Origin: Candidatus Thorarchaeota archaeon
GTDB taxonomy: Archaea > Asgardarchaeota > Thorarchaeia > Thorarchaeales > Thorarchaeaceae
Length of the DNA: 64,000 nt
Direction of reading: 5' to 3'
Assembly: GCA_016933575.1 (NCBI GenBank)
Contig: JAFGAR010000088.1
Coordinates: 203,764-267,763, forward strand
Of the stretch, positions 4,824-41,419 are shown piece by piece; positions within the stretch are counted from its first letter, which is position 1, and each line of letters begins with the position of its first letter. Position numbers and translations under genes: made by a program. The notes below the pieces were generated by a model, which did no database searches, was not told where the DNA came from, and saw only the letters and a list, made by a program, of their open reading frames with translations.

Positions 4824-6029
4824 TCACAGCTCCTGTGAATCTAGTATAGTTGTAATGTAGCTCTCCAACATTTCAGCAGGAACTTCAGAAAGCCCAATTA
4901 GTGTTGTTTGTCCACGTTGACCACTGCCTGATCGTTTTGTATCAATAATTCCGTGAGCATTAAGATCTTGAATCCATTCCCAAATTTGAGTGTGGGCTCT
5001 AGGTTCTTCATTATACTCCTCGCATGAGGAACGGTACATGTCTTCAACTTCACCCATGGTGACATAGGCGCTGCGAGTTTCTTTTAGTTGACGAGCTGTA
5101 GCTAAAAGAAGTAGCTTATGTTGTGGGGAGAGAGTACTGAATATTTCTTTTCGTAATTCAGGATGCGTATCTGCCTTTGCTTGTCGTGCATAGTCAGGAA
5201 CTACAATATCGGTTTGATCATTATCAGCTTGTTTTCCAGCACGCCAAAGTAATTCTATAGCATATCTTGCATCTCCACGTTCTGCTGCAATGTCTGCGAT
5301 TACATGTATGGTTTCGTCCATTACTGAGCTTTTCTCAAATGCCATTTCAACGCGGTTTCGGAGTATATCATATAATGCATCTCTATCATATCTTGAAAAA
5401 CGTAGAATGTTTCGTTGAAGTGTACTAAGTGTGCTCGAGTCAAGAATATCTTCATCAAGTGGGATTTTACGACCGATTCCAATCATCGAAACACGCTGAC
5501 GAGCATTGAGTTGATCGTCTGTGAGTCGGGTCAAATCATATAGAATATCAGCCCCTCTCTGTCTGATGAAATAATCAAGTTCATCAAGAATGAGAAGTAA
5601 ATATCTATCTTCTTCATCGAGAACCTCAACTAACATCTGTAGGAGTTCTTCTGGTGAGTGACCACGACGAGGAAATTCTGGCTTGAATTCTCTAAGGGCT
5701 CGAAGAAAGACAAGATAGGCTGTCTTATTTACACGACAATTGATGTGAATATTATGGAGATTGATGTTTCGGCGTTCAGCTGCTTGGACCATCTGTTCAG
5801 CAAATCTCTTTGCAACAGCAGTCTTTCCAGTTCCAACTGGACCTTCAATGATGAATTTATGACTGGTTCGCCCTGGAGAGTTAATCAATGTCTTAAAATT
5901 CTGTGCAAGAGTTCTAAGCTCAGATTGACGGTGAGGAAGGCTCTCAGGTACATAGTCGATTGATAGGAACTGCTCAGATTTGAAAACACTGCGTTTGCTT
6001 AGTTCATCCTCAATATAATCATGCACCAT
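4824..6029 (-). CDS. cdc6: Orc1/Cdc6 replication initiator
   Basis: YVPESLPHR, GPVGTGKT, INC, LILDELD, GDARYAI, C-terminal winged helix. Confidence 0.97.
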   Translation of the reverse strand: MVHDYIEDELSKRSVFKSEQFLSIDYVPESLPHRQSELRTLAQNFKTLINSPGRTSHKFIIEGPVGTGKTAVAKRFAEQMVQAAERRNINLHNIHINCRVNKTAYLVFLRALREFKPEFPRRGHSPEELLQMLVEVLDEEDRYLLLILDELDYFIRQRGADILYDLTRLTDDQLNARQRVSMIGIGRKIPLDEDILDSSTLSTLQRNILRFSRYDRDALYDILRNRVEMAFEKSSVMDETIHVIADIAAERGDARYAIELLWRAGKQADNDQTDIVVPDYARQAKADTHPELRKEIFSTLSPQHKLLLLATARQLKETRSAYVTMGEVEDMYRSSCEEYNEEPRAHTQIWEWIQDLNAHGIIDTKRSGSGQRGQTTLIGLSEVPAEMLESYITTILDSQEL

Positions 6030-25057: not shown

Positions 25058-25079
25058 ACCCCTTCGTTTCCAGTGGAAC
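25058..25079 (-). promoter_or_regulatory. ORB (origin recognition box) with G-string
   Basis: Minus strand GTTCCACTGGAAACGAAGGGGT matches the archaeal ORB consensus; lies in a ~450-bp intergenic region. Confidence 0.75.
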
Positions 25080-29155: not shown

Positions 29156-29167
29156 GAACACGTGTTC
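29156..29167. promoter_or_regulatory. GAAC-N4-GTTC palindrome, copy 2 (GAACACGTGTTC)
   Basis: Perfect 12-bp palindrome. Confidence 0.55.
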
Positions 29168-29223
29168 GAGTTAATCTCATGCAAAGATGTTTCCAGATAA
29201 TGGTTGTAGATTATGTGGATAAT

Positions 29224-29388
29224 ACCCCTTCATTTCCTATGGAAATGGAAAAATGGAGTGATCATGAGCGGTCATTCTAATAATGATAAAAATGGAGATA
29301 AATAAGAGCTGTGTAAACAACTATTTATACTTATTGATAACTATTCTAATAGACTTCTGATTAATATTTCTAGTGGAAATGATGGGGT
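29224..29388. other. Candidate replication origin: two inverted ORBs flanking an AT-rich spacer
   Basis: 29224-29245 (-) TTTCCATAGGAAATGAAGGGGT and 29367-29388 (+) TTTCTAGTGGAAATGATGGGGT (18/22 identical), separated by ~120 bp of AT-rich DNA. Confidence 0.75.
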
Positions 29389-29398
29389 ACTATAGAAC

Positions 29399-29416
29399 TT
29401 AGAACACGTGTTCTAA
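29399..29416. promoter_or_regulatory. GAAC-N4-GTTC palindrome, copy 3 (TTAGAACACGTGTTCTAA)
   Basis: Perfect 18-bp palindrome abutting ATGTATTAC x2. Confidence 0.6.
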
Positions 29417-29535
29417 TGTATTACATGTATTACGGATATAAAGAAACCTAGTAGACAAAAATAATCCAATACCACAAGACTGATACAGTGTTCTTAATGC
29501 AAACCGGCATACGTTAGAAAGTGGAGGATCCATGA

Positions 29536-31428
29536 TTGGCGAAACCTCAAGAATTGCTTGAAGACACACCTGGAAAAGAAGTACTACTTCTAGCGAACGA
29601 GGCGATTGCTCGTGGAGTGTTAGAGGCTGGAGTTCGACTTGTTTCTCTCTATCCAGGCACACCTAGCAGCGAAATTGGAAACAATCTTACTTTCATGGCA
29701 CCGCATATTCCAAATTTCTACTTTGAATTCAGTACAAATGAAAAGGTAGCCTTGGAAGTTGCTGGAGCTGCTGCAGTGGCTGGTGTTAGATCCATGATGG
29801 TCTGTAAAGGACCTGGACTGAATGTTGCCGCAGATCCATTCTTTTCTCTTGCATACGTAGGAGTACGCGCTGGAATGGTCATTGTTGTTGCTGATGATCC
29901 TAGTATGTGGAGCTCACAAAATGAGAATGATAGTCGATATTATGCATTAATGGGAAACATGCCAATGATGGAACCTGCAGATCCTATCGAAGCAAAATCA
30001 ATGCTACTTGAAGCATTCAAGTTTTCTGAAATATTTGAACTTCCAGTTCTGTTTAGAACAACAACCCGTGTGAATCATACTAGAGCTCCCATAAGATATG
30101 GACCAATTCTTCCACGTCCTGACAAAGTAGAATTCAAAAAGGATCCTTTCAGATTTGTACCAATTCCATCCGTTGCTAGAACTAGACATCCATGGTTACT
30201 TGCTCAAATCGAGAAAGCACGAGAAGTATCTGAAACCAGTCCTCTTAATTTTACAGAGGGTCAAGGAGATTTAGGAATTATTACTAGTGGTGTTTCATAT
30301 AATTATGTGAAAGAAGCTCTTGTTGTAATGAACCTTAAAGCTGAAGTCTTGAAGCTTGGAATCACTCATCCAATACCTGAGAAGAAGATTATTGATTTTC
30401 TTAAGCGACATAACAAGGTAGTCATCGTAGAAGAGCTTGAACCCTTCATCGAAACACATACTCGCCGATTATCACAGCTGCATTCTATCAAAGTGGAAAT
30501 ACTCGGCAAAGATCAGGGCTATTTCTCTCGTGTTGGTGAATACAGTCCTCGAATAGTTATGGAAGTCCTGTGCACAATTAATAATTGTAATACACCTATT
30601 AATTGGACAGAGATTGACAATAGAGTAGGAAAGATACCCGACTTACCACCAAGACCTCCTCTGCTATGCGCAGGTTGTCCTCATCGAGCATCTTACTATG
30701 CCATTCGAACAGCAACTAGAGGAAAAGCAATCTATCCTTCTGATATCGGTTGCTATACTTTGAGTATAGCTCCGCCTCTGGAAACAGCAGACATTCTCTT
30801 TGATATGGGTTCGTCGATTTCTACTGCATGTGGAATAGCAGAAGTAACTGACCAAGATGTTGTAGCAACAATTGGCGATAGTACCTTCTTTGCATCCGGA
30901 TTGCCCGGAATTGTTAATGCGGTATACAATCAACATCGAATTTGTCTTGTTGTTCTTGACAACAGAACAACAGCAATGACTGGGCATCAACCACATCCTG
31001 GTACAGGGATTACAGGTATGCAAAAGAAAGTTACACCTCTAGACATCGAAGATGTATGTAAGGGTCTCGGTGTGAAATATGTTAAAACAATCAATCCTTT
31101 TGAATCAGTAGCTGGTCTTGTTGGCGAAGTTCGAGAGATGGTAAAATGGTCTAGAGAGAATCATAGTCCTGCAGTACTAGTTTCCAAAGAACCATGTGCT
31201 TTGCTGACAGCTGCTGATCGTCGTCGTCAAGGACTTACTCCACCAAAATACTATGTTGATTCAGAAACATGTACTGCCTGCAAACGTTGCCTTAATCGTT
31301 TATCTTGTCCTGCAATGTACATGGACCCTGATACAGAAAAAGCAGTCATAGATGAAACACTCTGTAATCTATGTGGAACATGTGTAGCAGTCTGCCCTCA
31401 AGGTGCAATTAAGCAGGAGGGTAAATAA
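29536..31428 (+). CDS. iorA: Indolepyruvate:ferredoxin oxidoreductase alpha subunit
   Basis: YPGTPSSEI, STNEKVALE, GLNVAADP, LCAGCPHR, DIGCY, IGDSTF, C-terminal 2x[4Fe-4S]. Confidence 0.96.
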   Translation: MAKPQELLEDTPGKEVLLLANEAIARGVLEAGVRLVSLYPGTPSSEIGNNLTFMAPHIPNFYFEFSTNEKVALEVAGAAAVAGVRSMMVCKGPGLNVAADPFFSLAYVGVRAGMVIVVADDPSMWSSQNENDSRYYALMGNMPMMEPADPIEAKSMLLEAFKFSEIFELPVLFRTTTRVNHTRAPIRYGPILPRPDKVEFKKDPFRFVPIPSVARTRHPWLLAQIEKAREVSETSPLNFTEGQGDLGIITSGVSYNYVKEALVVMNLKAEVLKLGITHPIPEKKIIDFLKRHNKVVIVEELEPFIETHTRRLSQLHSIKVEILGKDQGYFSRVGEYSPRIVMEVLCTINNCNTPINWTEIDNRVGKIPDLPPRPPLLCAGCPHRASYYAIRTATRGKAIYPSDIGCYTLSIAPPLETADILFDMGSSISTACGIAEVTDQDVVATIGDSTFFASGLPGIVNAVYNQHRICLVVLDNRTTAMTGHQPHPGTGITGMQKKVTPLDIEDVCKGLGVKYVKTINPFESVAGLVGEVREMVKWSRENHSPAVLVSKEPCALLTAADRRRQGLTPPKYYVDSETCTACKRCLNRLSCPAMYMDPDTEKAVIDETLCNLCGTCVAVCPQGAIKQEGK

Positions 31429-32043
31429 ATGAGTCGTAATACTAGTAATACAATTATCAACATAGCTATATCCGGCGTTGGCGGTCAAGGTGTCTTGACT
31501 CTTGCAGAACTTCTTGCAAAGGCAGCCCTGAAAGAAGGCTTGAACGTGCGGGTCGGTGAGATTCATGGAATGGCTCAACGAGGTGGTCATGTAGTATGTA
31601 CCGTTAGAATCGGTGATGCTCACGGTCCAGTAATTGACACAGGTACTGCAGATCTATTAGTTGGTTTTGAACCGGTTGAAACATTAAGAGAAATTCATCT
31701 AGTCAAAAGGGGTGGATATGTGCTGATGAGTTCACATATTCAATTTCCTGTAGCAGTATCTATGGGGAAGGCCAAGTACCCAAGTAATGATGAAATCCTA
31801 GACACAATCAAGACATTCACGAACAAGATTATTGAATTCGATGCAATGGAGGTCGCCCGGAACTCAGGAAGTTCCAGAGCATTAAACATGGTCATGTTTG
31901 GTGGAATCATCGGCACTGGTCTTGTTCCAATTAGCAAAGATGCTGCTCTTCAAGTCATACGTGAATCGTTTCCCTCTAAATTTGAGAAAATAAACACAAT
32001 TGCAGCAGAAACGGGTATCAACAAGGTCAAGCAATTGCTCTAA
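31429..32043 (+). CDS. iorB: Indolepyruvate:ferredoxin oxidoreductase beta subunit
   Basis: GVGGQGVL, EIHGMAQRGG, ADLLVGFEP.E, NMVMFG. Confidence 0.95.
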   Translation: MSRNTSNTIINIAISGVGGQGVLTLAELLAKAALKEGLNVRVGEIHGMAQRGGHVVCTVRIGDAHGPVIDTGTADLLVGFEPVETLREIHLVKRGGYVLMSSHIQFPVAVSMGKAKYPSNDEILDTIKTFTNKIIEFDAMEVARNSGSSRALNMVMFGGIIGTGLVPISKDAALQVIRESFPSKFEKINTIAAETGINKVKQLL

Positions 32044-32066
32044 TTATGTATTAATTGTATTACATA

Positions 32067-34427
32067 TTATGACCACTGATTGACGAACAGAGCTGCACTA
32101 CTTGCAACTTGTCCTGCTGATACTCCACCATCGCCAGGTGGAATAATTGAATGAAATATAGGAACCAATCCAGACCGCTTCACTTGTTTCCCAATTGCTG
32201 ATGTGATAATCCGATTAAGAGCCACCCCACCAGAAAATCCAATATGTAACACTCCTTCTTCTTCAGCCACATCACAGGCAAGCTTTGCAAGACTCTCACC
32301 TAAATGCCATTGAGCGATATATGCAAGTTCCTTTCTACTGACTCCTTTATTCTTGAGATCAAGAATCTCCAAGAGTGAATTAGTAGTGTCCAAAACAGGA
32401 CCATAATCTGCTTCTACAAATCTTGGTTCGATTCTAATATCACTAGGATGAGCGACTGCCTCCAATTTTATTGGACACTCACCATCATACGAGTTTTCTG
32501 AGCAAATATCCAGGGCAAGAGCTATAGCATCAAGAAATCGACCAGCACTCGTACTTGAAATCGTGTTTATTCTCTGTCTTTCAGATTTGAGTAGAGTTTC
32601 CAATACTTGTTCAGAAATTGGTGTATTAGGTCCCACTTGGGATGATCCTAACATATCCAGGAGTTTCTTACTATCTATCTCTTCTCCAACAATTCCAATG
32701 AGTGATCGTGCAGCATAGACTGCAGACAAATCACCACCTGTGTATACCTGAGAAACAAGCCCTCCTCTTCTCTCAGATTCTTCACAATTACCAACAAGAA
32801 TCTCACCACCCCAAGCAGTTCCATCTGTTCCATATCCATATCCATCAGCTGTAATACAAACAATACGACTATCACAGGGAATCACACCATCAACCATTAC
32901 TGCTGCAAGATGTGCGTGATGATGTTGAATACGAAAGAGGGGAACATTGTTGCTGTTAGACAATCTTTGAGCCAATTCAGTGCTCAAGAATTCAGGATGC
33001 AAATCACAGGCAACAGCATCTAACTTATTGACATCAAGAAGATGTAACATATGTTCAATTGCATCAGAGAGAAAATCAATATTTTCTGATTGATCAGTAT
33101 CTCCAATGTATTGTGTCATATATATTCGACCAGATTTTAGGACCGCCCCTGTTGTTTTTTCTTCTGGACCAACACCAATAATTCTGAGAGATCTCCATGG
33201 CCCGCCAAAGTGAAGTGGTTCTGGTACGTAGCCCCTTGCACGTCTGATGAAAACAGGACTTGTATCATCTAACAATTTGACAACTGAATCATCAGCCCGT
33301 TGATGGATCCTTCGGTTGTGAACTAAGAAATAATCGACAATATCGCTCAGTTCACTCATTATTTTACTCGAATCAATGTACATAGGGACCCCAGTAGGGT
33401 TCGCACTTGTCATGACCAAAGCTGGTTCCTTAGTGTACTTGAAAAGAAGATGATGCATTGGTGCGTATGGTAACATGACTCCGATACTGTCCAAGTTCGG
33501 AGCTATAGCATCTAAGACATCATGCTGTAATATCTGTAATACATTATTTTCAAAGTTCTTCTTCGCCAAGACTATAGGTCTTCTCCATGAAGTGAGAATT
33601 CTTTCTTCAACTTCATTGATATTAACGATACCTTTGAGAGTTTTCAAATCCCGAACCATAATCGCAAATGGTTGGGTTGGTCTTCCTTTTCTTAGTCTTA
33701 ATCTATGAATTACTCTATGATCACTAGTCTTTGTTGCAATGTGAGTTCCAGATATTCCTTGAAGTGCGACTATCTTATCACGGTCAATTAGATTCGCAGT
33801 CATTTCAATTGGATTTCTATCAGAGACCGTTTCACTATCTTTGTCAAGAAGTCGGTAAATTGGACCACACGTTTCACAGGCTGTTGTCTGAGCATGATAT
33901 CTTCTATCAAAGGGATTTGTATAACCTGTATTACAAATATTACATAATGGAAAATCTATCATAGTAGTATTTGGTCTATCGTAAGGAAGATCTGTAACAG
34001 TTGAGAACCTTGGTCCACACGCCGCACATGATGTGAATGGGTAGAGATACCAATGAGATGTTGGATCATCTAGATCCCTGATGCAATCATCACAGATTGC
34101 AATGTCTGGTGGTAATACAGGAATAGCGTCTTTATTTCTCTCTGTTGAAGACTTACGGATTTCGAACTCTCTGAATACCTTCTGTGAATTTGACCATTGT
34201 ACGTCGAGCGAATCTATCCTTGATATCGAAGGAGAATCATGTTTAATATTCCAAATCAAATTTTGAATACTTTCTTCTTCACCTTCAACAATAATCTCAA
34301 CACCTGCATCACCAAGATTCTTGACATAGCCATCAAGCGACAATGACTTTGCAATACGATAGATGAAAGGTCTAAATCCTACTCCTTGAACGATTCCAGT
34401 TACATGGATTGTCGCTTGTTTTTGCAC
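32067..34427 (-). CDS. hypF: Carbamoyltransferase HypF
   Basis: GIVQGVGFRPF, two Zn fingers, VMTSAN, DLHP, QHHHAH, DGYGYG.DG..WGGE, GDGGVSAGQ. Confidence 0.97.
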   Translation of the reverse strand: MQKQATIHVTGIVQGVGFRPFIYRIAKSLSLDGYVKNLGDAGVEIIVEGEEESIQNLIWNIKHDSPSISRIDSLDVQWSNSQKVFREFEIRKSSTERNKDAIPVLPPDIAICDDCIRDLDDPTSHWYLYPFTSCAACGPRFSTVTDLPYDRPNTTMIDFPLCNICNTGYTNPFDRRYHAQTTACETCGPIYRLLDKDSETVSDRNPIEMTANLIDRDKIVALQGISGTHIATKTSDHRVIHRLRLRKGRPTQPFAIMVRDLKTLKGIVNINEVEERILTSWRRPIVLAKKNFENNVLQILQHDVLDAIAPNLDSIGVMLPYAPMHHLLFKYTKEPALVMTSANPTGVPMYIDSSKIMSELSDIVDYFLVHNRRIHQRADDSVVKLLDDTSPVFIRRARGYVPEPLHFGGPWRSLRIIGVGPEEKTTGAVLKSGRIYMTQYIGDTDQSENIDFLSDAIEHMLHLLDVNKLDAVACDLHPEFLSTELAQRLSNSNNVPLFRIQHHHAHLAAVMVDGVIPCDSRIVCITADGYGYGTDGTAWGGEILVGNCEESERRGGLVSQVYTGGDLSAVYAARSLIGIVGEEIDSKKLLDMLGSSQVGPNTPISEQVLETLLKSERQRINTISSTSAGRFLDAIALALDICSENSYDGECPIKLEAVAHPSDIRIEPRFVEADYGPVLDTTNSLLEILDLKNKGVSRKELAYIAQWHLGESLAKLACDVAEEEGVLHIGFSGGVALNRIITSAIGKQVKRSGLVPIFHSIIPPGDGGVSAGQVASSAALFVNQWS

Positions 34428-34585
34428 TGTAGTAGCTCCTTCACATTTTAATATTCAAACTAAATATTAATCCAATGACGTGGTCCTATAACGACTTAAT
34501 GTATCGTAATACAAATAATACAATCATATATTCTACTTAGTATAGGTCCTCTTAAGGCTTGAAACATATAAACATCTGATCAGGC

Positions 34586-34999
34586 TTGACGACTAACACT
34601 CCTATCAAATCATTAGTTCACGAACCAGAGACAACCCCCTCAGTCTTAGCTTCAATTCCTGACAGTCTCAAGTATACACTTCTTGAGTCTATCAGTGTTG
34701 AGAAAAAATCAAGAAAATCAATACTTGTTTCAAGTAACAATCTCACAAATCGTTTCATTCTATCAAGATGGGGAATTCGACCATCTCAGCGAAGGCGATA
34801 CAAGAATCTATTTTCATCGATAAGAAAACACTGCCGAATACTCTTTCAACATTATCTTCTTCGTGGACGTATAGAATGGATTGATAATTCAGGAAAACAT
34901 CTCTTTGGTGTTTTCAAATTTGATGAAGTACGTGGCAATCTAATCTTGGGATTTGTTCCAATGTCTCCAGAATCCGAATGGACTCTTTCTAATCGATGA
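34586..34999 (+). CDS. Basic hypothetical protein (possible DNA-binding)
   Basis: 137-aa ORF, Arg/Lys-rich; flanked by TGTAWTACA arrays on both sides. Confidence 0.55.
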   Translation: MTTNTPIKSLVHEPETTPSVLASIPDSLKYTLLESISVEKKSRKSILVSSNNLTNRFILSRWGIRPSQRRRYKNLFSSIRKHCRILFQHYLLRGRIEWIDNSGKHLFGVFKFDEVRGNLILGFVPMSPESEWTLSNR

Positions 35000-35185
35000 C
35001 ATCCATTAGCGTTTTCTGTAATACAAGTATCACAATATTTAAAGAAGAGGAATAAGTTATCTACCTTTGTATACAATATTGTATCCGTGCAGAACAACAG
35101 ACTTCACATTGAAGGAAATGCGTTATTGGTGGCTTAGAAGGCTTTTAGAAGCATTTTCTATCTACCATGAAGGAGCACTACCAGG

Positions 35186-35716
35186 ATGAACAATAATGAT
35201 AAAAAAATGAGGGAGATAGCATCTGGAACAAAACAGGTATTACAAGAACCAATTCTTAGACTACTACAAGCCGGGTCTGTACTAAGTCTCCCACAGCTTG
35301 AAACACTTCTAATAGATTTGGTCATCGAAGACAACTATGGTACTCATATCACTTATGATGATAAAGCATCTTTTAGATCCAAATCCGGAACTAGATCAAA
35401 AGGCGTTTCAAGAGGTGCATTCAATAGAACATTAAAACAAGCCAGAAAAAATGTGACAAGGTGTCTCTATACAATGCTACTCCTTACTTACCTTGGTTTG
35501 TTTGAACTTACGATATTTCGTCCTTTCGAAGAAGTTGCAGCTCGTATCGGCGATTATCGTAGAATCAGAGAAATACTCGCAGGGAAGACAGACTTGAGTC
35601 AAGAGGATCTAGAAAGCATCAAAGTCACTGAACGTACGATTATTGCAGCCTTAGAAGATTTAGTTTCATCTCTTGCATTAAAGACCGAAACTTCAAGAAG
35701 GAAACCTATGGAATAA
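35186..35716 (+). CDS. Hypothetical protein with HTH-like segment
   Basis: LSLPQLETLL...YDDKA...GVSRGAFNRTLKQARKN resembles a sigma-region-4/Tfx-like HTH. Confidence 0.6.
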   Translation: MNNNDKKMREIASGTKQVLQEPILRLLQAGSVLSLPQLETLLIDLVIEDNYGTHITYDDKASFRSKSGTRSKGVSRGAFNRTLKQARKNVTRCLYTMLLLTYLGLFELTIFRPFEEVAARIGDYRRIREILAGKTDLSQEDLESIKVTERTIIAALEDLVSSLALKTETSRRKPME

Positions 35717-36217
35717 TTTGAAAATATGTATTATTTGTATTACATCATGAATTCTAGATAGTCCTAGAATTTTAGTCAGAGCTGTAAAAAAGAAACGGCT
35801 CGAGTGTGTCGTACAGAAGAAGCGCGACAGACATCTGGAATCACATTCCGGCACTAGCGCATTCAAGCTACCGTTAAGTCATCCTGGAGATTTTTTGAGG
35901 AGATAGAGATGACAATGAAAGTACCTGAAACGTCAGAGTGATTGTGATCCATCGACGTCAGCCTATCTTCCATTGTTACAACACACTCATACAATGACAT
36001 GTAACAATTGTACATAGTTCTAATCTTAGAACGAGAAATTCTAGGTCAAATCATCAAAGTCTTGGCGCGAAATTATATCGAAAGGATTAGAATCTCCATA
36101 TATCTAATACTAGTAATACAAATAATACATTTTCTACTCAATAGCACAATTAATCACATAAGTATGAGAACCATATCAAAAGTAAACCAATGATTATCAA
36201 AATCACGAGGTCCAGTA

Positions 36218-37447
36218 TTGTCTGAAGAAAAGAATCGTTCATCAATCCTGAAAGCCGCAAAAGACCGCGCAAGGCAATCAGAAATGCAATCAAATATTCA
36301 AATGATTACTGATGCCATTGGAGACCGAAGGGATCGCGACCTATTAGACATTCTTTCCCAATTGGAACAAGATACTGGTTGGCCAATCGCTCTCGAGTAT
36401 CTACTTGAAGCAAAAGACTTTTGCTACTCACTTCCAATTGGATCTGGTCCAATAAGGACTCAACTAGAACCCCTCAAGTATCGAGAGATGGTATTTTCCA
36501 TTTTTTCATGTGATGGACTTGAGCCAATTATCACGCCTACCATTGAACTACTAACTCCTTTGAAAGACGAGCACTCCCTTCTGGATGCATCTCGCAAATT
36601 GCGCAACAGAATCGAGCAATTAGCTATGAATCAAATTCAATCTGGAGATACATTGTTTTTCGACTCTTCAGATTTTGGAATCTCATTTTCAAAAGAATTC
36701 TCAAACACACTTGATCAAATGATGAACAAACAAATCCATGGACTGGTCTTGGAGAAACATAATGATGAGATTGACATCAGTCCTCTTTGGCAATATGAAA
36801 CAGGTCGTTTAACATTATCAAAATTGGGAATTAGAGGGAAGGAGATAGATCTTGAAACTGCTAATCTAGTATTATCTGTAATACAACAACCAATCACAAT
36901 CTCTAATTCTTCTACACACAATAGTTCCCCATTACATCATCCAACAAATCCAAAATACAGGGAATTGCTTGACTGCATTATTGAACAGAACATCGATGGA
37001 CTGCGTTCATTGTCAAGTAGACATTCTTACATTATACTAAAACAACTATTAGAGGAAGCAATAGATCGATATGCTCAAACATCATCAAGTCTAGATTATA
37101 GACGAATTCTAAATCTTATCAATGCTCATGTCAGAATCCGAACTCCAGAATCAATTCAATTACTTCAACTTCTCATAAATCACAAGGATATACGTATTGC
37201 ATCTGTGGCAATCACGGCTTTGGGCAACTTCTATCACGAGTCAGCTGTATATGTCTTGGTGGATTCTTTATGTGATACCAAAAATATGGAGATTGTAAGA
37301 AGAACCACAGCTGCAATCAAAACCATTGCACGAAGGTGTCCAGAAACCAATTATGTAATCATGCAAGCTCTTGAATCTGCATGTACACACAAAGCTCGAT
37401 TACGACATATACAGAAGGAAATTGGCAAGCAAAAGGCTTTGTATTAA
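36218..37447 (+). CDS. Hypothetical protein with C-terminal HEAT repeats
   Basis: DIRIASVAITALGNF..AVYVLVDSLCD..EIVRRTTAAIKTI. Confidence 0.7.
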   Translation: MSEEKNRSSILKAAKDRARQSEMQSNIQMITDAIGDRRDRDLLDILSQLEQDTGWPIALEYLLEAKDFCYSLPIGSGPIRTQLEPLKYREMVFSIFSCDGLEPIITPTIELLTPLKDEHSLLDASRKLRNRIEQLAMNQIQSGDTLFFDSSDFGISFSKEFSNTLDQMMNKQIHGLVLEKHNDEIDISPLWQYETGRLTLSKLGIRGKEIDLETANLVLSVIQQPITISNSSTHNSSPLHHPTNPKYRELLDCIIEQNIDGLRSLSSRHSYIILKQLLEEAIDRYAQTSSSLDYRRILNLINAHVRIRTPESIQLLQLLINHKDIRIASVAITALGNFYHESAVYVLVDSLCDTKNMEIVRRTTAAIKTIARRCPETNYVIMQALESACTHKARLRHIQKEIGKQKALY

Positions 37448-37511
37448 TAGTATTACATGTATTTTATTACTCTCGACAGACATAAATCGTATTCGTATCA
37501 GGCGTCAGATT

Positions 37512-38897
37512 ATGACAGGTTCTCATGACGAAATTTTCCAAAGTATTGATCCTTTCTTCAACCCAAAACGTGTAGCTTTAGTTGGTGCATCTGCAGACTA
37601 TCGGAAACTAGGGAATTCAATTCTAATGAATCTCTTAGCTTCAGAAATTGAAGTGTATCCAATAACTCATAGCAGAGAACACGTTCTTGGAGTAAAAGCA
37701 TACCCCAGTCTTTCTAATTTGCCAGAACCTGTTGATCTTGTGATAGTGGTAGTCGCTGCTAGACATTGCCCTCCACTAATGTCGGAGATAAGAAAGGCTG
37801 GAGCTAAGAATGCTGTGATAATATCTGGTGGGTTTAGTGAGACCGGTCCTGAGGGGCAGGAACATGAAAGAGAATTGGTAAAAGCAGCAAGAGATTCAAA
37901 TGTAAGAATAATTGGTCCTAATTGTGTTGGCGTTTCTAATAGTCGTCTCTTTAATGGTACCTTTACAATGATGCCAGAAAGAGGAAATATCGCATTTGTA
38001 TCTCAGAGTGGTGCTCTTGGAGGTATGAGTATATACACAACAAGAGCGAAAAGAATCGGAATGAGTAAATTTGCAAGCATTGGTAATTCAGCTGATGTAG
38101 GATTCGTTGAAATCTTGGATTACTTCACACAAGACTCTAAGTCAACTGTAATTGCAGTGTATATTGAAGGTGTCAATGATGGGCGTGCATTATTTGAATC
38201 ACTTCAAAGAGCAGCCGTAGTGAAACCAGTTGTTGTATTAAAAGGTGGAAGAAGTGAAGCCGGAGGACATGCAACCCAATCGCATACTGGTTCTCTTGCC
38301 GGTTCATCACAAATCTTTGATGGGATGCTTCGTCAAGCTGGTTGTGTGACAGCTCCCACTCTTGACACACTTTTTGAAATATGCAAGCTCTTTGATTATC
38401 AACCTCTCCCCAGAGGTTGTAATATTGGTATTATTAGTAATACAGGAGGAGCAGGAGTACTAGCAACAGATTCTGCTTCAGTATCTGGACTATCTATTGC
38501 TTCATTTGAGGACGAAACAAAACACGAATTACGTCAAGTATTGTCACCCATAGCATCTGTCAATAATCCTATCGATGTTGTTGCAAGTGGTGGAAGGAGA
38601 GAATATCGAATTGCCACGGAGCTTCTTCTGAAAGATCCAAATGTAGACATGCTGCTTGTCATTTGTGGAGTACCAACATTTGCAGGAATGACACAGACAG
38701 AACACGCGGCAGGGACTCTTGAAGGTGTAAGGATGGCTTCAACTGAGAAACCTGTTATCGGAGTATGGCTTGCAGGTGACGTTGGAAAACCTGGCAAGGA
38801 TTTGTTAGAAATGAACAGAATCCCATGCTTCGATGATCCTGCCTTGGCTGCACTCTGCATGTCGCGAATTGCTGAATATGCTAGGAATCACAAATAA
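37512..38897 (+). CDS. acdA: Acyl-CoA synthetase (ADP-forming) alpha subunit
   Basis: FFNPKRVALVGAS, ISGGFSE, RIIGPNCVG, SQSGALG, SHTGSLAG, NPID. Confidence 0.92.
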   Translation: MTGSHDEIFQSIDPFFNPKRVALVGASADYRKLGNSILMNLLASEIEVYPITHSREHVLGVKAYPSLSNLPEPVDLVIVVVAARHCPPLMSEIRKAGAKNAVIISGGFSETGPEGQEHERELVKAARDSNVRIIGPNCVGVSNSRLFNGTFTMMPERGNIAFVSQSGALGGMSIYTTRAKRIGMSKFASIGNSADVGFVEILDYFTQDSKSTVIAVYIEGVNDGRALFESLQRAAVVKPVVVLKGGRSEAGGHATQSHTGSLAGSSQIFDGMLRQAGCVTAPTLDTLFEICKLFDYQPLPRGCNIGIISNTGGAGVLATDSASVSGLSIASFEDETKHELRQVLSPIASVNNPIDVVASGGRREYRIATELLLKDPNVDMLLVICGVPTFAGMTQTEHAAGTLEGVRMASTEKPVIGVWLAGDVGKPGKDLLEMNRIPCFDDPALAALCMSRIAEYARNHK

Positions 38898-38930
38898 CGA
38901 TGTATGTAATACAAATATTACAACACTGGA

Positions 38931-39230
38931 CTACTTGAGATATTCCTCTGCGATTTGGGGAAATTGTCTTGTTATTGCTTCACGAAGCTGTTGCTCAACC
39001 CACATACTCAGATTAATTGCATTATTCTTTCGAATAGCTTTTAGACATGCTCGAAGATCCATTGGTATTGAAAATGATACAATAGGACTCTTTCGTTCCT
39101 TATTGGGTACAGCCGCAAGCATCTCAGTTGTCTTTGTCAAAGCTTGTGATTCACGAGAAACTGATTTTGTGGTTGGACTCTCTTCTTCTTTTTCAGCTTC
39201 TTCACGTCTATATTTTCCAAGTAGACTCAT
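38931..39230 (-). CDS. Ribbon-helix-helix protein with disordered N-terminal tail (ParG/SegB-like architecture)
   Basis: ATG 39230 is 1 nt after the ATPase stop, with AGGAGGT SD; PIVSFSIP-DLRACLKAIRK-NLSMWVEQQLREAI is an RHH pattern. Confidence 0.7.
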   Translation of the reverse strand: MSLLGKYRREEAEKEEESPTTKSVSRESQALTKTTEMLAAVPNKERKSPIVSFSIPMDLRACLKAIRKNNAINLSMWVEQQLREAITRQFPQIAEEYLK

Positions 39231-39231
39231 A

Positions 39232-40212
39232 TTATTGTACCTCCTTGAGTAGGGATGCATAAGCCTCAGCAACAAGTTCAGCAATCTCTTGGGTCACAGT
39301 TGGATCATTATTTTTCCTAAGAGTTTCAGCTGCTACTTGTTGGCACCCACGTGCTAACATTCTGATATCGCGTGGGTTTCCTTTTGCTGCATCATTAATC
39401 ACTTTGATTGCATCTTCACTGAATGGATAGACTTCAAAAGTATCAGGGTTGAAACTGTCTATCCTTCCTTGCGCATATGCAATTCTTCTACCAATGAACT
39501 CTCGTGCTTTCTCTGTACTAAGTGGTGGTACGTCAAGTGGCTCAGTACGATCAGCAATCTGTGGTAAGAATGATAACATAGCATTCCAATACATCGTAGT
39601 TCCAGACATGACCAATGTGACAATTGGTTCATCAAGAACTTGAGACTTGCCATATGTATCAACCATTTCTTCCGTAGGCAAATCTGCTAGATAACGAAGT
39701 TTGTGAAATGCTGCTTCTTGATTATCTGCAACATCTTCAATGAATAATGCAGTCCTACTTTTTTCTTCGATATATCTTCTTAGACTTTCTTTTGCTACTG
39801 CATCAATTATTTGACTTGATTCCCATGATCTCTTGTATTTCACTCTCAGTGAGTCTGCAATAGCTGCTGCCATTTGTTTCTCATAGAGTCCAGTCATTCC
39901 CACATATCCAGTGACGAATTTATTCCCTCGTCGATCTGCCAATGTAGGAAGGTCTCTTAGTGCCAAAAGCATTAGTGTACTCTTACCCGATCCGACTGGC
40001 CCCCTGATGAAAACATGCCTCTCGTTTGTGATTATCAAATCGACAATGGAATCCAAGAAGTTACTATCCTCGATATACAATCGGCTGTCAGGCATTTTGA
40101 AACCGCGAAATGGTGAAAACCTAGCACCAATTCTCTCTTCCCATGCTCGCAGGACTTCTTTACGAGTGTTAAAGTGTCGAATCAATGCACTTTCATGGAT
40201 AGCAATCGTCAT
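39232..40212 (-). CDS. ExeA/GspA-TnsC-like AAA+ ATPase
   Basis: SPF, GPVGSGKST, Walker B LFIED, LVMSG, IADR, L..EKAREFIGRR, FSEDAI.VI..A.GNPRDI; no wHTH or peptidoglycan-binding tail. Confidence 0.8.
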   Translation of the reverse strand: MTIAIHESALIRHFNTRKEVLRAWEERIGARFSPFRGFKMPDSRLYIEDSNFLDSIVDLIITNERHVFIRGPVGSGKSTLMLLALRDLPTLADRRGNKFVTGYVGMTGLYEKQMAAAIADSLRVKYKRSWESSQIIDAVAKESLRRYIEEKSRTALFIEDVADNQEAAFHKLRYLADLPTEEMVDTYGKSQVLDEPIVTLVMSGTTMYWNAMLSFLPQIADRTEPLDVPPLSTEKAREFIGRRIAYAQGRIDSFNPDTFEVYPFSEDAIKVINDAAKGNPRDIRMLARGCQQVAAETLRKNNDPTVTQEIAELVAEAYASLLKEVQ

Positions 40213-40433
40213 TTGCGTGGACCTCTATTCTCTGAAATCATCGTATCACAAGTAGTGCTTGTAATACAATTTTTCATTTACGAATTCTGATATAAAAGGT
40301 GTGGTAAAAAGCTCCCGGAAGCGAATGATCGTTAAAGAACAGATTCTCCAATACGCAACCTTTTTGAATAGAATAAGATGGCAAGTACGCTGACCAACAA
40401 ATTGGTCTTGAGCTCAACTAGGAGCTGTCTGAC

Positions 40434-40712
40434 ATGGATATTGAACGTATTAAGCATATCATGAACTCTTTGATGATATTATCATTTCTCATATTCGGAG
40501 GACTATCTGCAATCATTCTGATTACAGATGTGCGTCTGAATAATGCAACTGTATCATTACCATTTGCTTTTCTGTTCATTTCCATGATCACATTCATTAT
40601 TACAGGTCAGATTAACGATAAGCCTAAACTCGCACAGAAATATCTAAGAGATTGGCTCATCATCTGCACAATTGGAATAATTATCAGCAGTCTTGCGTTT
40701 ACAATCTACTAA
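40434..40712 (+). CDS. Small 3-TM membrane protein
   Basis: Three hydrophobic segments. Confidence 0.6.
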   Translation: MDIERIKHIMNSLMILSFLIFGGLSAIILITDVRLNNATVSLPFAFLFISMITFIITGQINDKPKLAQKYLRDWLIICTIGIIISSLAFTIY

Positions 40713-40747
40713 GTTTCTCCTGCTTCTCAAGTATCGAAGTGATACAT

Positions 40748-41383
40748 ATGAGTAAGATTCTACCTGGTACAAAGACAACTCGGATGGAGCTTCTTGCTCT
40801 AAAGAATAGAATGAAGCTTGCTGAAAGAGGTCATGATCTTCTTAGAGAGAAACGTGACTCATTGATAATGGAGTTCTTCAATGCCATAGCTGAAATCAAA
40901 GAAGCCCGAGAGAAGGTAGATTCAACTCTGTCTGATGCATTTTCTGCACTAACACAAGCAAAGATGGTTATGGGTCCTGCTAGAGTAATTGAGTTTGCCT
41001 ATGCTAGTAAGTTCGAAGCTGATCTCAATATCGCTACTAGATCTATGATGGGCGTAAGAGTTCCAGTTCTATCTGTTGAACAACGGAGTCCTGAATTGCC
41101 TTATTCTCTTTCAGACTCAAGTACCAAATTTGATGTAATGGGTGAGAAATTTAAAGAAGCGCTAAAAGCAATAGTTCGTCTGGCAGAAATTGAATCAACA
41201 GTTAAACGCCTTGCCTTAGAAATTGAAAGGACGAAAAGACGTGTATCAGCTCTTGAAACAGTTGTTATCCCACGACTTGATGCAACAGTCCGTTTTGTAA
41301 AACTTGCTCTCGAAGAACGCGAACGCGAAGATTTCGTGCGACTCAAGATGGTTCGGGATTGGATAACTGCTGAGGAAGAATGA
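40748..41383 (+). CDS. atpD: A/V-type ATP synthase subunit D (isolated from the operon)
   Basis: TRMELL.LK.R..LA.RGHDLLREKRD, MGVRVP, EIERTKRRV.ALE..VIP, LEERERE.F.RLK. Confidence 0.95.
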   Translation: MSKILPGTKTTRMELLALKNRMKLAERGHDLLREKRDSLIMEFFNAIAEIKEAREKVDSTLSDAFSALTQAKMVMGPARVIEFAYASKFEADLNIATRSMMGVRVPVLSVEQRSPELPYSLSDSSTKFDVMGEKFKEALKAIVRLAEIESTVKRLALEIERTKRRVSALETVVIPRLDATVRFVKLALEEREREDFVRLKMVRDWITAEEE

Positions 41384-41419
41384 CGAAATGTATTACTAGT
41401 AATACAATATAGTTATGAC

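Follow-up and report, generated by a model that had tools for sequence, protein, structure and literature searches.

In Sulfolobales, SegAB is encoded by a chromosomal two-gene operon, in which an ATPase gene is followed by the gene of a small site-specific ribbon-helix-helix (RHH) protein possessing an N-terminal ATPase-interacting region (PMC12139799). Short repeated sites are located next to this operon, and segS consists of one triple repeat positioned 166 kb from an origin (PMC12139799). The present analysis concerns another chromosomal operon, which encodes an AAA+ ATPase and a predicted RHH partner with a conserved N-terminal tail. It was found in a 64,000-nucleotide stretch of a Candidatus Thorarchaeota genome (contig JAFGAR010000088.1, positions 203,764 to 267,763), which is called the window hereafter and corresponds to G000:C64:203764-267763 of an assembly of 3.47 Mb in 215 contigs. 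We propose, with about even confidence, that this operon supplies the AAA+ motor and the adaptor of a centromere-like system linked to the origin. No published description of the module was found in the literature.

To our knowledge, every DNA-partition system described so far either has a nucleoside triphosphatase (NTPase) of the ParA, actin or tubulin type or has none, and nothing is known experimentally about the origins and segregation of Asgard archaea. In type Ib cassettes, such as ParF-ParG and delta-omega, a small RHH protein binds the centromere and stimulates the ATPase by means of a flexible basic N-terminal tail; the repeats are short, of heptad type and either direct or inverted, and autoregulation takes place at the operon promoter. 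MuB and TnsC form ATP-dependent polymers on DNA that are disassembled via a terminal peptide of a partner, which follows a patterning logic similar to that of ParA.

The AAA+ ATPase and its tailed partner

Both genes of the module are co-oriented on the minus strand (Table 1). The ATG of the RHH gene (39230) is positioned 1 base after the TAA stop codon of the ATPase gene (39234-39232), with GGAGGT at 39239-39244, and the two genes are predicted to be translationally coupled. A longer, TTG-started reading of the RHH gene (38931-39284) finds no support, since MSLL is where the partners of other genomes begin.

A sequence-only reading of this DNA had ascribed to the ATPase a classical Walker A without the ParA-type KGG, an atypical Walker B, an arginine finger and a sensor-II arginine, all of which were located at the expected places. 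Walker A (GPVGSGKST) occupies residues 71-79 and lacks the KGG signature lysine. Walker B (LFIED) occupies residues 156-160; the core family has ED as its acidic pair, for which distant homologues have DE or DD. IADR ends at R222 and GNPR at R281. In an alignment of 19 ATPase sequences, which reaches down to 20% identity, the invariant residues include G74, G76, K77, R222 and R281, and G204 of the sensor-1 stretch SGT (203-205) is nearly invariant. An AlphaFold model based on this alignment, with a mean predicted local distance difference test (pLDDT) value of 88.6 and a predicted template modelling score (pTM) of 0.83, consists of a five-stranded AAA+ core and a helical lid. In this model the Box VII position, between helix 4 and strand 5, is taken by R222, and the sensor-2 position, where a lid helix begins, by R281. 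The protein was hence assigned to the AAA+ superfamily on the basis of the conserved K77, E159/D160, R222 and R281 together with the strand order and lid of the model. Identity with ParA or SegA was rejected, because Walker A lacks the signature lysine and the fold is AAA+ with a lid; Pfam AAA_31 and CbiA gave no match on the ATPase. ParM and TubZ were likewise rejected in view of the AAA+ core and helical lid in a confident model, for which all top fold rows were AAA+ proteins. The exclusion of ParA, ParM and TubZ by the sequence-only reading is thus upheld.

That reading had also stated that no DNA-binding winged helix-turn-helix (HTH) is present. The chain indeed stops after the lid, and alignments with Orc/Cdc6 proteins span just their AAA+ and lid parts, indicating that the ATPase has no winged helix; Cdc6_C gave no match in the Pfam scan. 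As the ATPase lacks a DNA-reading domain of its own, DNA reading has apparently been handed to the separate RHH protein. Two helices between strands 2 and 3 (residues 111-121 and 132-150), linked by a conserved basic loop (R122, K124, K126 and R127), occupy the position of the DNA-contacting insertion in initiator-clade proteins. By this analogy, the helix pair and its basic loop (R122-R127) may contact DNA.

The name ExeA/TnsC-like, under which the protein had first been described, captured its neighbourhood of AAA_22, ExeA, TnsC and Orc proteins but was too narrow, because Orc1/Cdc6 modules match the ATPase at least as well in both structure and profile. In Pfam, AAA_22 remained below threshold (23.8 bits against a cut-off of 27), as did AAA_16 and NB-ARC, and AAA_22 matched 18 of the 19 members of the ATPase family. 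TIGR03015 (ExeA-like) gave 28.2 bits against a cut-off of 324.5, with an E value of 1.2e-6 over residues 62-316, and TIGR02928 (Orc1/Cdc6) gave 15.9 bits against 181.3; no curated family cut-off of Pfam or NCBIfam was reached. The automatic name of the protein at the Joint Genome Institute (JGI) is of ExeA type, and its N-terminal G..F.PF...PD motif presumably resembles that of ExeA. Membership of ExeA/GspA was rejected, since the score is far under the cut-off and no type II secretion system (T2SS) or PEP-CTERM context was present among the neighbours read.

Structural comparison of the ATPase model by Foldseek placed archaeal Orc/Cdc6 at the top (1w5t, E = 5e-10), and TnsC and RuvB-type proteins appeared lower. 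An exhaustive structural search gave Z values of 19.4 for a Cdc6 (7jgr_G), 18.8 for Aeropyrum ORC2 (1w5s_A), 18.6 for Sulfolobus Cdc6/Orc1 (2qby_B) and 17.5 for Pyrobaculum Cdc6 (1fnn_B), followed by 17.3 for both the MuB filament (8xvb) and the ShCAST TnsC filament (7m99); many AAA+ chains match the model at Z 12-19. Compared with solved chains, the ATPase family profile aligned over nearly its full length only with ORC1 (E = 5e-5, residues 63-311) and VchTnsC (1.4e-3), and partly with archaeal Cdc6. Of the features that define Orc1/Cdc6 proteins, the AAA+ module with a Cdc6-type lid is present, and the winged helix and a curated score are lacking. The ATPase is a member of the Orc/Cdc6-MuB/TnsC-ExeA neighbourhood that is devoid of a winged helix and stands outside every curated family.

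The partner starts with the tail MSLLGKYRREE, which the sequence-only reading had singled out as a charged extension that could act on the ATPase. It is present as described, and its residues L4, K6, Y7 and R8 are invariant in an alignment of 15 partners. The linker that follows (17-38) is variable and was modelled with low confidence, after which a strand (50-52) and two helices (57-70 and 74-89) were obtained at pLDDT 81-92, followed by the conserved C-terminal end. All top Foldseek rows for this model were RHH proteins (Arc, CopA, ParD, SegB 7dv2 and CopG), each of them non-significant (E > 0.5). The Pfam RHH_1 cut-off of 20.5 was passed by the partner of locus L007 (23.2), and the window partner did not pass it. 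Comparisons of the RHH protein with solved structures, run with the single sequence and with a profile, were uninformative.

The partner has 388 homologues, and a small gene of the tail-linker-RHH design follows the ATPase gene in every orthologous locus looked up. Three tail types were distinguished by lineage, namely LLGKYRKEE, IAKKVKEQE and FAERFKKIDGGK. A genome-wide check of open reading frames (ORFs) found the tail peptide in no other ORF of the window genome. In one metagenomic lineage (L009 486-2472), the AAA+ gene is followed by a KaiC-type ATPase gene carrying three tandem N-terminal copies of VLSKY[RK]K and no RHH, and a 66-aa RHH-like gene lies upstream of the AAA+ gene. This KaiC fusion indicates that the tail peptide is portable and travels with the AAA+ gene, as expected of an ATPase-docking motif, and the arrangement suggests that the ATPase may serve other clients. 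A complex prediction for the ATPase and the whole RHH protein, both supplied as alignments, returned a score of 0.00, a "no answer" that weighs neither way on binding.

The repeat field and the predicted origin

The window contains a field of GTAWTAC heptamers arranged with a 9-bp period (Table 1). Fourteen such arrays were detected at 29418-41405, as compared with 2 in the remaining 3.45 Mb of the genome. A 17-mer composed of two GTAWTAC units matched the window 22 times against 0.27 expected, with all matches at 26.0-41.4 kb, and 11 of the 14 genome-wide matches with up to 2 mismatches fell in the repeat field stretch. The density of the heptamer is approximately 1.5 per kb in the field and 0.07 per kb genome-wide. 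The same picture was obtained for the closed genome G001 (CP070658), where 21 of 22 repeat matches are confined to one 13-kb stretch around the orthologous operon.

Repeats were also compared among families of the phylum, which are denoted f1 (the family of the window genome), f2 and so on; all phyletic counts below refer to a sample of 301 genomes of the phylum, in which related genomes are non-independent samples. In f27, with an ATPase of 45% identity, the GTAWTAC motif occurs in a compact form: in two genomes, 11 of 12 and 11 of 11 genome matches lie within 3.6 kb of the operon, and most of these fall within ~950 bp of AT-rich DNA without genes that immediately follows the RHH gene. In f19, NFNVR replaces IVSFS as the type of the RHH strand, and GATATC units recurring every 12-14 bp make up the repeat. 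A closed 3.6-Mb f19 genome contains 10 GATATC pairs, of which 9 fall in 11.4 kb spanning both oriC and the operon, and a reversed control pattern gave 0. Genome-unique repeat fields were thus found in three families (f1, f27 and f19), in each of which the co-transcribed NTPase, the putative binder and a linked array unique to the genome are combined as in a partition cassette.

The field begins at the edge of a predicted oriC, which consists of two inverted origin recognition boxes (ORBs) at 29225-29245 and 29367-29387; the first strict array (29418) directly follows this pair, and a further, third box is present at 25079. Conservation of the ORB pair extends to L001, L002, L010, L013-L016, L018, L020 and L021, and in G001 the pair occupies the syntenic place. 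An ORB-defined origin was located 0.9-17 kb from the ATPase gene in seven Asgard families, including three closed genomes. Comparable ORB pairs lie 0.9-7 kb from the ATPase in f2, f3, f7, f19 and f21 loci and 16.5 kb from it in one f27 genome. The sole two perfect ORBs of the closed genome G002 (1.4 Mb) are 5.4 kb from the ATPase, and in G039 an ORB triple is 2 kb away. The contig of the window carries Orc1/Cdc6 genes at 4824-6029 (-) and at G000:C64:157133-158263, 46 kb before the window start, of which the latter adjoins the PolD small subunit gene. As the ORB pair at 29.3 kb adjoins neither of them, origin and cdc6 are separated in this lineage; they adjoin each other in f2, f7 and f13.

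A separate observation at the origin is a perfect palindrome, GAACACGTGTTC, of which two copies bracket the ORB pair upstream of iorA (29157-29168 and 29403-29414). It is conserved at the syntenic place in G001 (L001 20490 and 20716), and may be the site of a separate factor acting at the origin or the ior promoter.

The proximity of the operon to the origin raises the alternative, already named beside chromatin organisation in the sequence-only reading, that the ATPase, as an Orc/Cdc6-like protein devoid of a winged helix, is brought by the RHH protein to the origin flanks and there regulates firing or MCM loading without moving DNA, for example through Orc1/Cdc6 interaction, origin sequestration or licensing. 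Orc1/Cdc6 and ORC1 are the best structural and profile matches of the ATPase, most lineages have the operon at a distance of 0.9-10 kb from an ORB pair, the repeat field starts at the ORB pair, and an Orc1/Cdc6 gene is present within 3-35 kb. However, arrays that extend over 12-15 kb and into genes are far more than origin melting needs, the compact f27 array is 16.5 kb from the nearest ORB, and the slot of the operon in f13 is filled by ParA-ParB, not by a replication factor (see below). Replication control was hence judged to be a somewhat unlikely explanation.

Three heptamers upstream of the ATPase start (40243-40267) constitute a putative operator of the ATPase-RHH operon. Copies of the respective lineage-specific repeat were also identified between the promoter and the ATPase start in 13 other loci, representing most lineages, which fits autoregulation. 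The arrays of the window are distributed over intergenic regions, between convergent gene ends (38906 and 41390), and inside iorB, hypF, a HEAT gene and acd. Intragenic phased arrays at 32851, 33527, 33919, 36869 and 38419 (hypF, HEAT-repeat and acd genes) were observed, some of them at the same place in G001; the coding sequence of these genes seems to accommodate binding sites.

Since RHH proteins are typically repressors, a local transcription circuit was also considered, in which the RHH protein represses its own operon and the metabolic neighbours ior, acd and hypF, with the ATPase being an enzyme that is co-transcribed but otherwise unrelated. The many arrays in promoter-containing intergenic regions, one of them over the operon's own promoter, agree with such a circuit. 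It does not account for the five arrays inside coding sequence, the two between convergent gene ends, or the f27 arrays that fill a gene-free 1-kb stretch. Moreover, the neighbour genes vary by lineage whereas the links to oriC and the ATPase persist, and the conserved tail peptide and the KaiC fusion point to a protein partner. This explanation is therefore very unlikely.

Under the motor-adaptor proposal, RHH dimers would load cooperatively on the 9-bp-phased GTAWTAC units, by which the origin-proximal DNA is marked, and would also repress the promoter of their own operon. Many N-terminal basic peptides (LLGKYR) would then be displayed on each array, from which they could reach the AAA+ ATPase and control it. 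By analogy with MuB and TnsC, the ATPase might coat DNA as an ATP-dependent oligomer; where the RHH peptide is concentrated, this oligomer would be either disassembled through triggered hydrolysis or recruited, as in MuB/TnsC, ParA-ParB and ParF-ParG. Such a cycle could generate a ParA-like gradient or a tether between sister origins, so that origin-proximal DNA would be positioned, held together or segregated.

Table 1. Features of the module, its repeats and the predicted origin (positions in the window)
Feature	Position	Strand	Description
AAA+ ATPase gene	39232-40212	-	ORF, 326 aa; AAA+ fold like Orc/Cdc6, MuB and TnsC, without winged helix
Tailed RHH partner gene	38931-39230	-	99 aa; LLGKYR peptide, disordered linker 17-38, RHH ~48-89, FPQIAEEY end
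Predicted oriC	29225-29387	.	Inverted canonical ORB pair (TTCCAnnGGAAA plus G-string) around ~120 bp of AT-rich DNA
Repeat field	29418-41405	.	14 strict GTAWTAC arrays, exact 9-bp period, counted against the rest of the genome
Strict array starts	29418, 31436, 32048, 33527, 33919, 34506, 35018, 35728, 36104, 36869, 37441, 38419, 38906, 41390		
Looser GTAWTAC sites	26046 and 28788		
Two-unit heptamer array	38906-38921	.	Right after the RHH stop codon, between convergent genes
Three 9-bp-phased heptamers	40243-40267	.	GTATCAC, GTAGTGC and GTAATAC, between TATA-like TTTTATAT and the ATPase start
Gene X	35186-35716	+	176 aa, HTH-like; co-occurs with the ATPase-RHH pair (alignment A4)

Distribution, gene X and the ParA-ParB slot

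The ATPase family is narrow, giving 26 matches at E <= 0.001 among 1.84 billion representative proteins, and the full-length homologues in that search were 68, 45, 41, 32, 30 and 22% identical. Within Thorarchaeota, the ATPase is 75-92% identical across more than 100 cluster representatives. Between the window genome and G001 its identity is 81%, which is exceeded among 15 syntenic neighbours by just TFE (92%) and PAN (83.5%); V-ATPase D (75%), NAC (66%) and HypF (58%) are lower. The gene is single-copy and near-universal in f1 (69 of 76 genomes), f2 (1 of 1), f3 (4 of 4), f7 (5 of 5), f19 (5 of 6), f21 (3 of 3) and f27 (8 of 11), and no match was found in f5 (0 of 28), f22 (0 of 21), f14 (0 of 11) and f13 (0 of 3). 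As judged from these sequence comparisons, it is distributed like a core gene passed on by vertical descent, and unlike mobile or defence genes.

Two observations concern more distant relatives. The homologue P0137 has a C-terminal extension that is winged-helix-like in appearance, and f12 possesses a longer (439-458 aa), very divergent ATPase relative beside gene X and near an ORB cluster (L025 10641-11960; L027 8681-10057). They suggest an ancestor in which AAA+ and winged HTH domains were joined, from which the form lacking the winged helix may have been derived.

A mobile-element, defence or toxin-antitoxin cassette, that is, a target selector of the TnsC/TniB type or an RHH antitoxin pair, comes to mind from the fold similarity to TnsC and MuB and from the frequent occurrence of RHH proteins as antitoxins. 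Such a cassette is highly improbable for a single-copy gene that is syntenic among housekeeping genes and conserved at about the level of PAN, in a region of even composition and with no transposase or integrase in any locus. As the sequence-only reading had claimed, transposase and T2SS genes were absent from the ORFs scanned at 20.5-39 kb of the window and, for the other side, from the Pfam table of the syntenic locus L001; the context of a TnsC, TniB or MuB protein is lacking as well, given that no transposase occurred in the scanned window ORFs or in ~14 orthologous loci. The same reading was to be abandoned if orthologues resided mostly in secretion or transposon contexts without the RHH gene. 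Instead, all contexts read contained a tailed partner and were near an origin, and no orthologue was in a transposon; a T2SSE-type ATPase gene lies 2.5 kb off in a single lineage (L007/L008).

A third gene accompanies the module. Gene X was found within 5 kb of the ATPase-RHH pair in every locus checked, including all 10 extra loci, and directly after the RHH gene in some lineages; its phyletic pattern is approximately that of the ATPase, plus f12 and f13. Its HTH-like helix is nearly constant across lineages with different repeats, and the RHH protein is hence the better candidate for binding the repeats, a preference that rests on covariation in few lineages. In three f3 genomes, the gene X match crosses one in-frame TAG (G002:C1:629307-629810, G014:C1:514794-515300 and G025:C1:16920-17426), which could represent a split gene, read-through or recoding. 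Two 117-aa ORFs beside oriC in L010 and L023 are of similar size and were dismissed as not homologous. Another neighbour, divergent from the ATPase promoter, is a predicted membrane ORF of 92 aa at 40434-40712 (+), for which a 66% identical counterpart exists at the same place in G001.

In two closed f13 genomes, the sole ORB cluster is followed within 1-2 kb by ParA (AAA_31, E = 1e-53), ParB (ParB_N and HTH_ParB), gene X and an HTH-CBS gene. The order in f7 is Cdc6, ORB pair, AAA+ ATPase, tailed RHH, gene X, HypF and an orthologous HTH-CBS gene, which is 51% identical to that of f13. With orthologous flanks, ParA-ParB of the two f13 genomes occupies the slot between oriC and gene X that the AAA+-RHH pair takes in f7. 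In f13 (L023 9367-9783), ParB and gene X are separated by a fragment with a TNB domain of the Cas12f/TnpB type, possibly a remnant of the event by which ParAB arrived there. A survey of ParB across the phylum revealed partial complementarity, in that ParB without the module occurs in 26 of 28 f5 and 3 of 3 f13 genomes; the f5 ParB gene is not near ORB matches. TIGR00180 (ParB) gave no match in the window genome.

It was also considered that the module is an origin-domain chromatin organiser or loader, in which RHH arrays nucleate a domain and the ATPase remodels it or loads a factor such as SMC, with no directional transport. The dispersed sites, including those inside genes and between convergent genes, the relationship of the ATPase to loader and initiator AAA+ proteins, and the third conserved HTH-like gene, X, in the neighbourhood are all compatible with this role. 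It was considered unlikely, and none of the loci read showed a link to SMC; computationally, it is inseparable from the motor-adaptor proposal.

The suggestion of the sequence-only reading that the pair works in partition has gained comparative support from the unique repeat fields, the linkage to oriC, the covariation of repeat and RHH protein and the ParAB slot of f13, while segregation itself is what we infer. Several points weigh against the motor-adaptor proposal. The 9-bp period and the arrays inside genes are unusual for known centromeres, and a simple k-mer screen gave no repeat field in f3 and f21 loci. A phased-repeat screen of L002 and L010 yielded no clear field either, and absence is not claimed for any of these loci. 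For the repeats, gene X provides another candidate binder, against which its constant helix argues without excluding it. The displacement by ParAB rests on one family, f13, whose members are not independent, and many Asgard families have neither the module nor ParB, which implies that neither is generally required. Furthermore, ParA/MinD-family genes were found away from the origin in 4 of 4 genomes checked, so another segregation ATPase is possible. The wider proposition, that a new class of partition machine composed of an Orc/Cdc6-MuB/TnsC-type AAA+ motor, a tailed RHH protein and phased heptamers flanking oriC serves to segregate or position the origins of Thorarchaeia and several other Asgard classes, is therefore put forward only tentatively.

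Comparison with described systems

If the proposal is true, an AAA+ motor of the initiator lineage (Orc/Cdc6, MuB, TnsC) constitutes a new partition class, and origin recognition and chromosome handling are tied together in Asgard archaea. Should the module instead act in replication control or in organising the origin domain, it would still represent an undescribed, highly conserved, origin-specific system. It offers testable handles, namely the predicted oriC, a short motif with lineage variants, a 99-aa candidate binder, a candidate activating peptide and the replacement by ParAB in a sister family.

ExeA/GspA (COG3267, TIGR03015) is the best sequence-family match of the ATPase, yet the match is far below the cut-off and there is no T2SS context. 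MuB, TnsC and TniB share with it the fold and the lack of a sequence-reading domain, whereas the window gene has no transposase nearby and is single-copy and vertically inherited. With Orc1/Cdc6 it has in common the AAA+ and lid match and the adjacency to an ORB origin; in contrast, the winged helix is missing, and bona fide Orc1/Cdc6 genes are also present. Bacterial ParABS resembles the module in the cluster of sites around oriC beside the operon, but neither a ParB/CTPase fold nor ParA is found in the latter. Type Ib cassettes employ a ParA with the deviant Walker motif, whereas the module here is AAA+, chromosomal, origin-flanking and dispersed. The closest archaeal system is SegAB-segS, which shares the operon layout, the tailed RHH protein and the nearby repeats, and whose SegB (7dv2) is among the non-significant fold matches of the partner. 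SegA is a ParA-type Walker ATPase, unlike the AAA+ protein with an Orc/TnsC fold in the window, and the one triple repeat of segS contrasts with at least 14 arrays over 12 kb that abut oriC. The module would thus follow the logic of a partition cassette, with a new class of NTPase and a field of sites flanking the origin.

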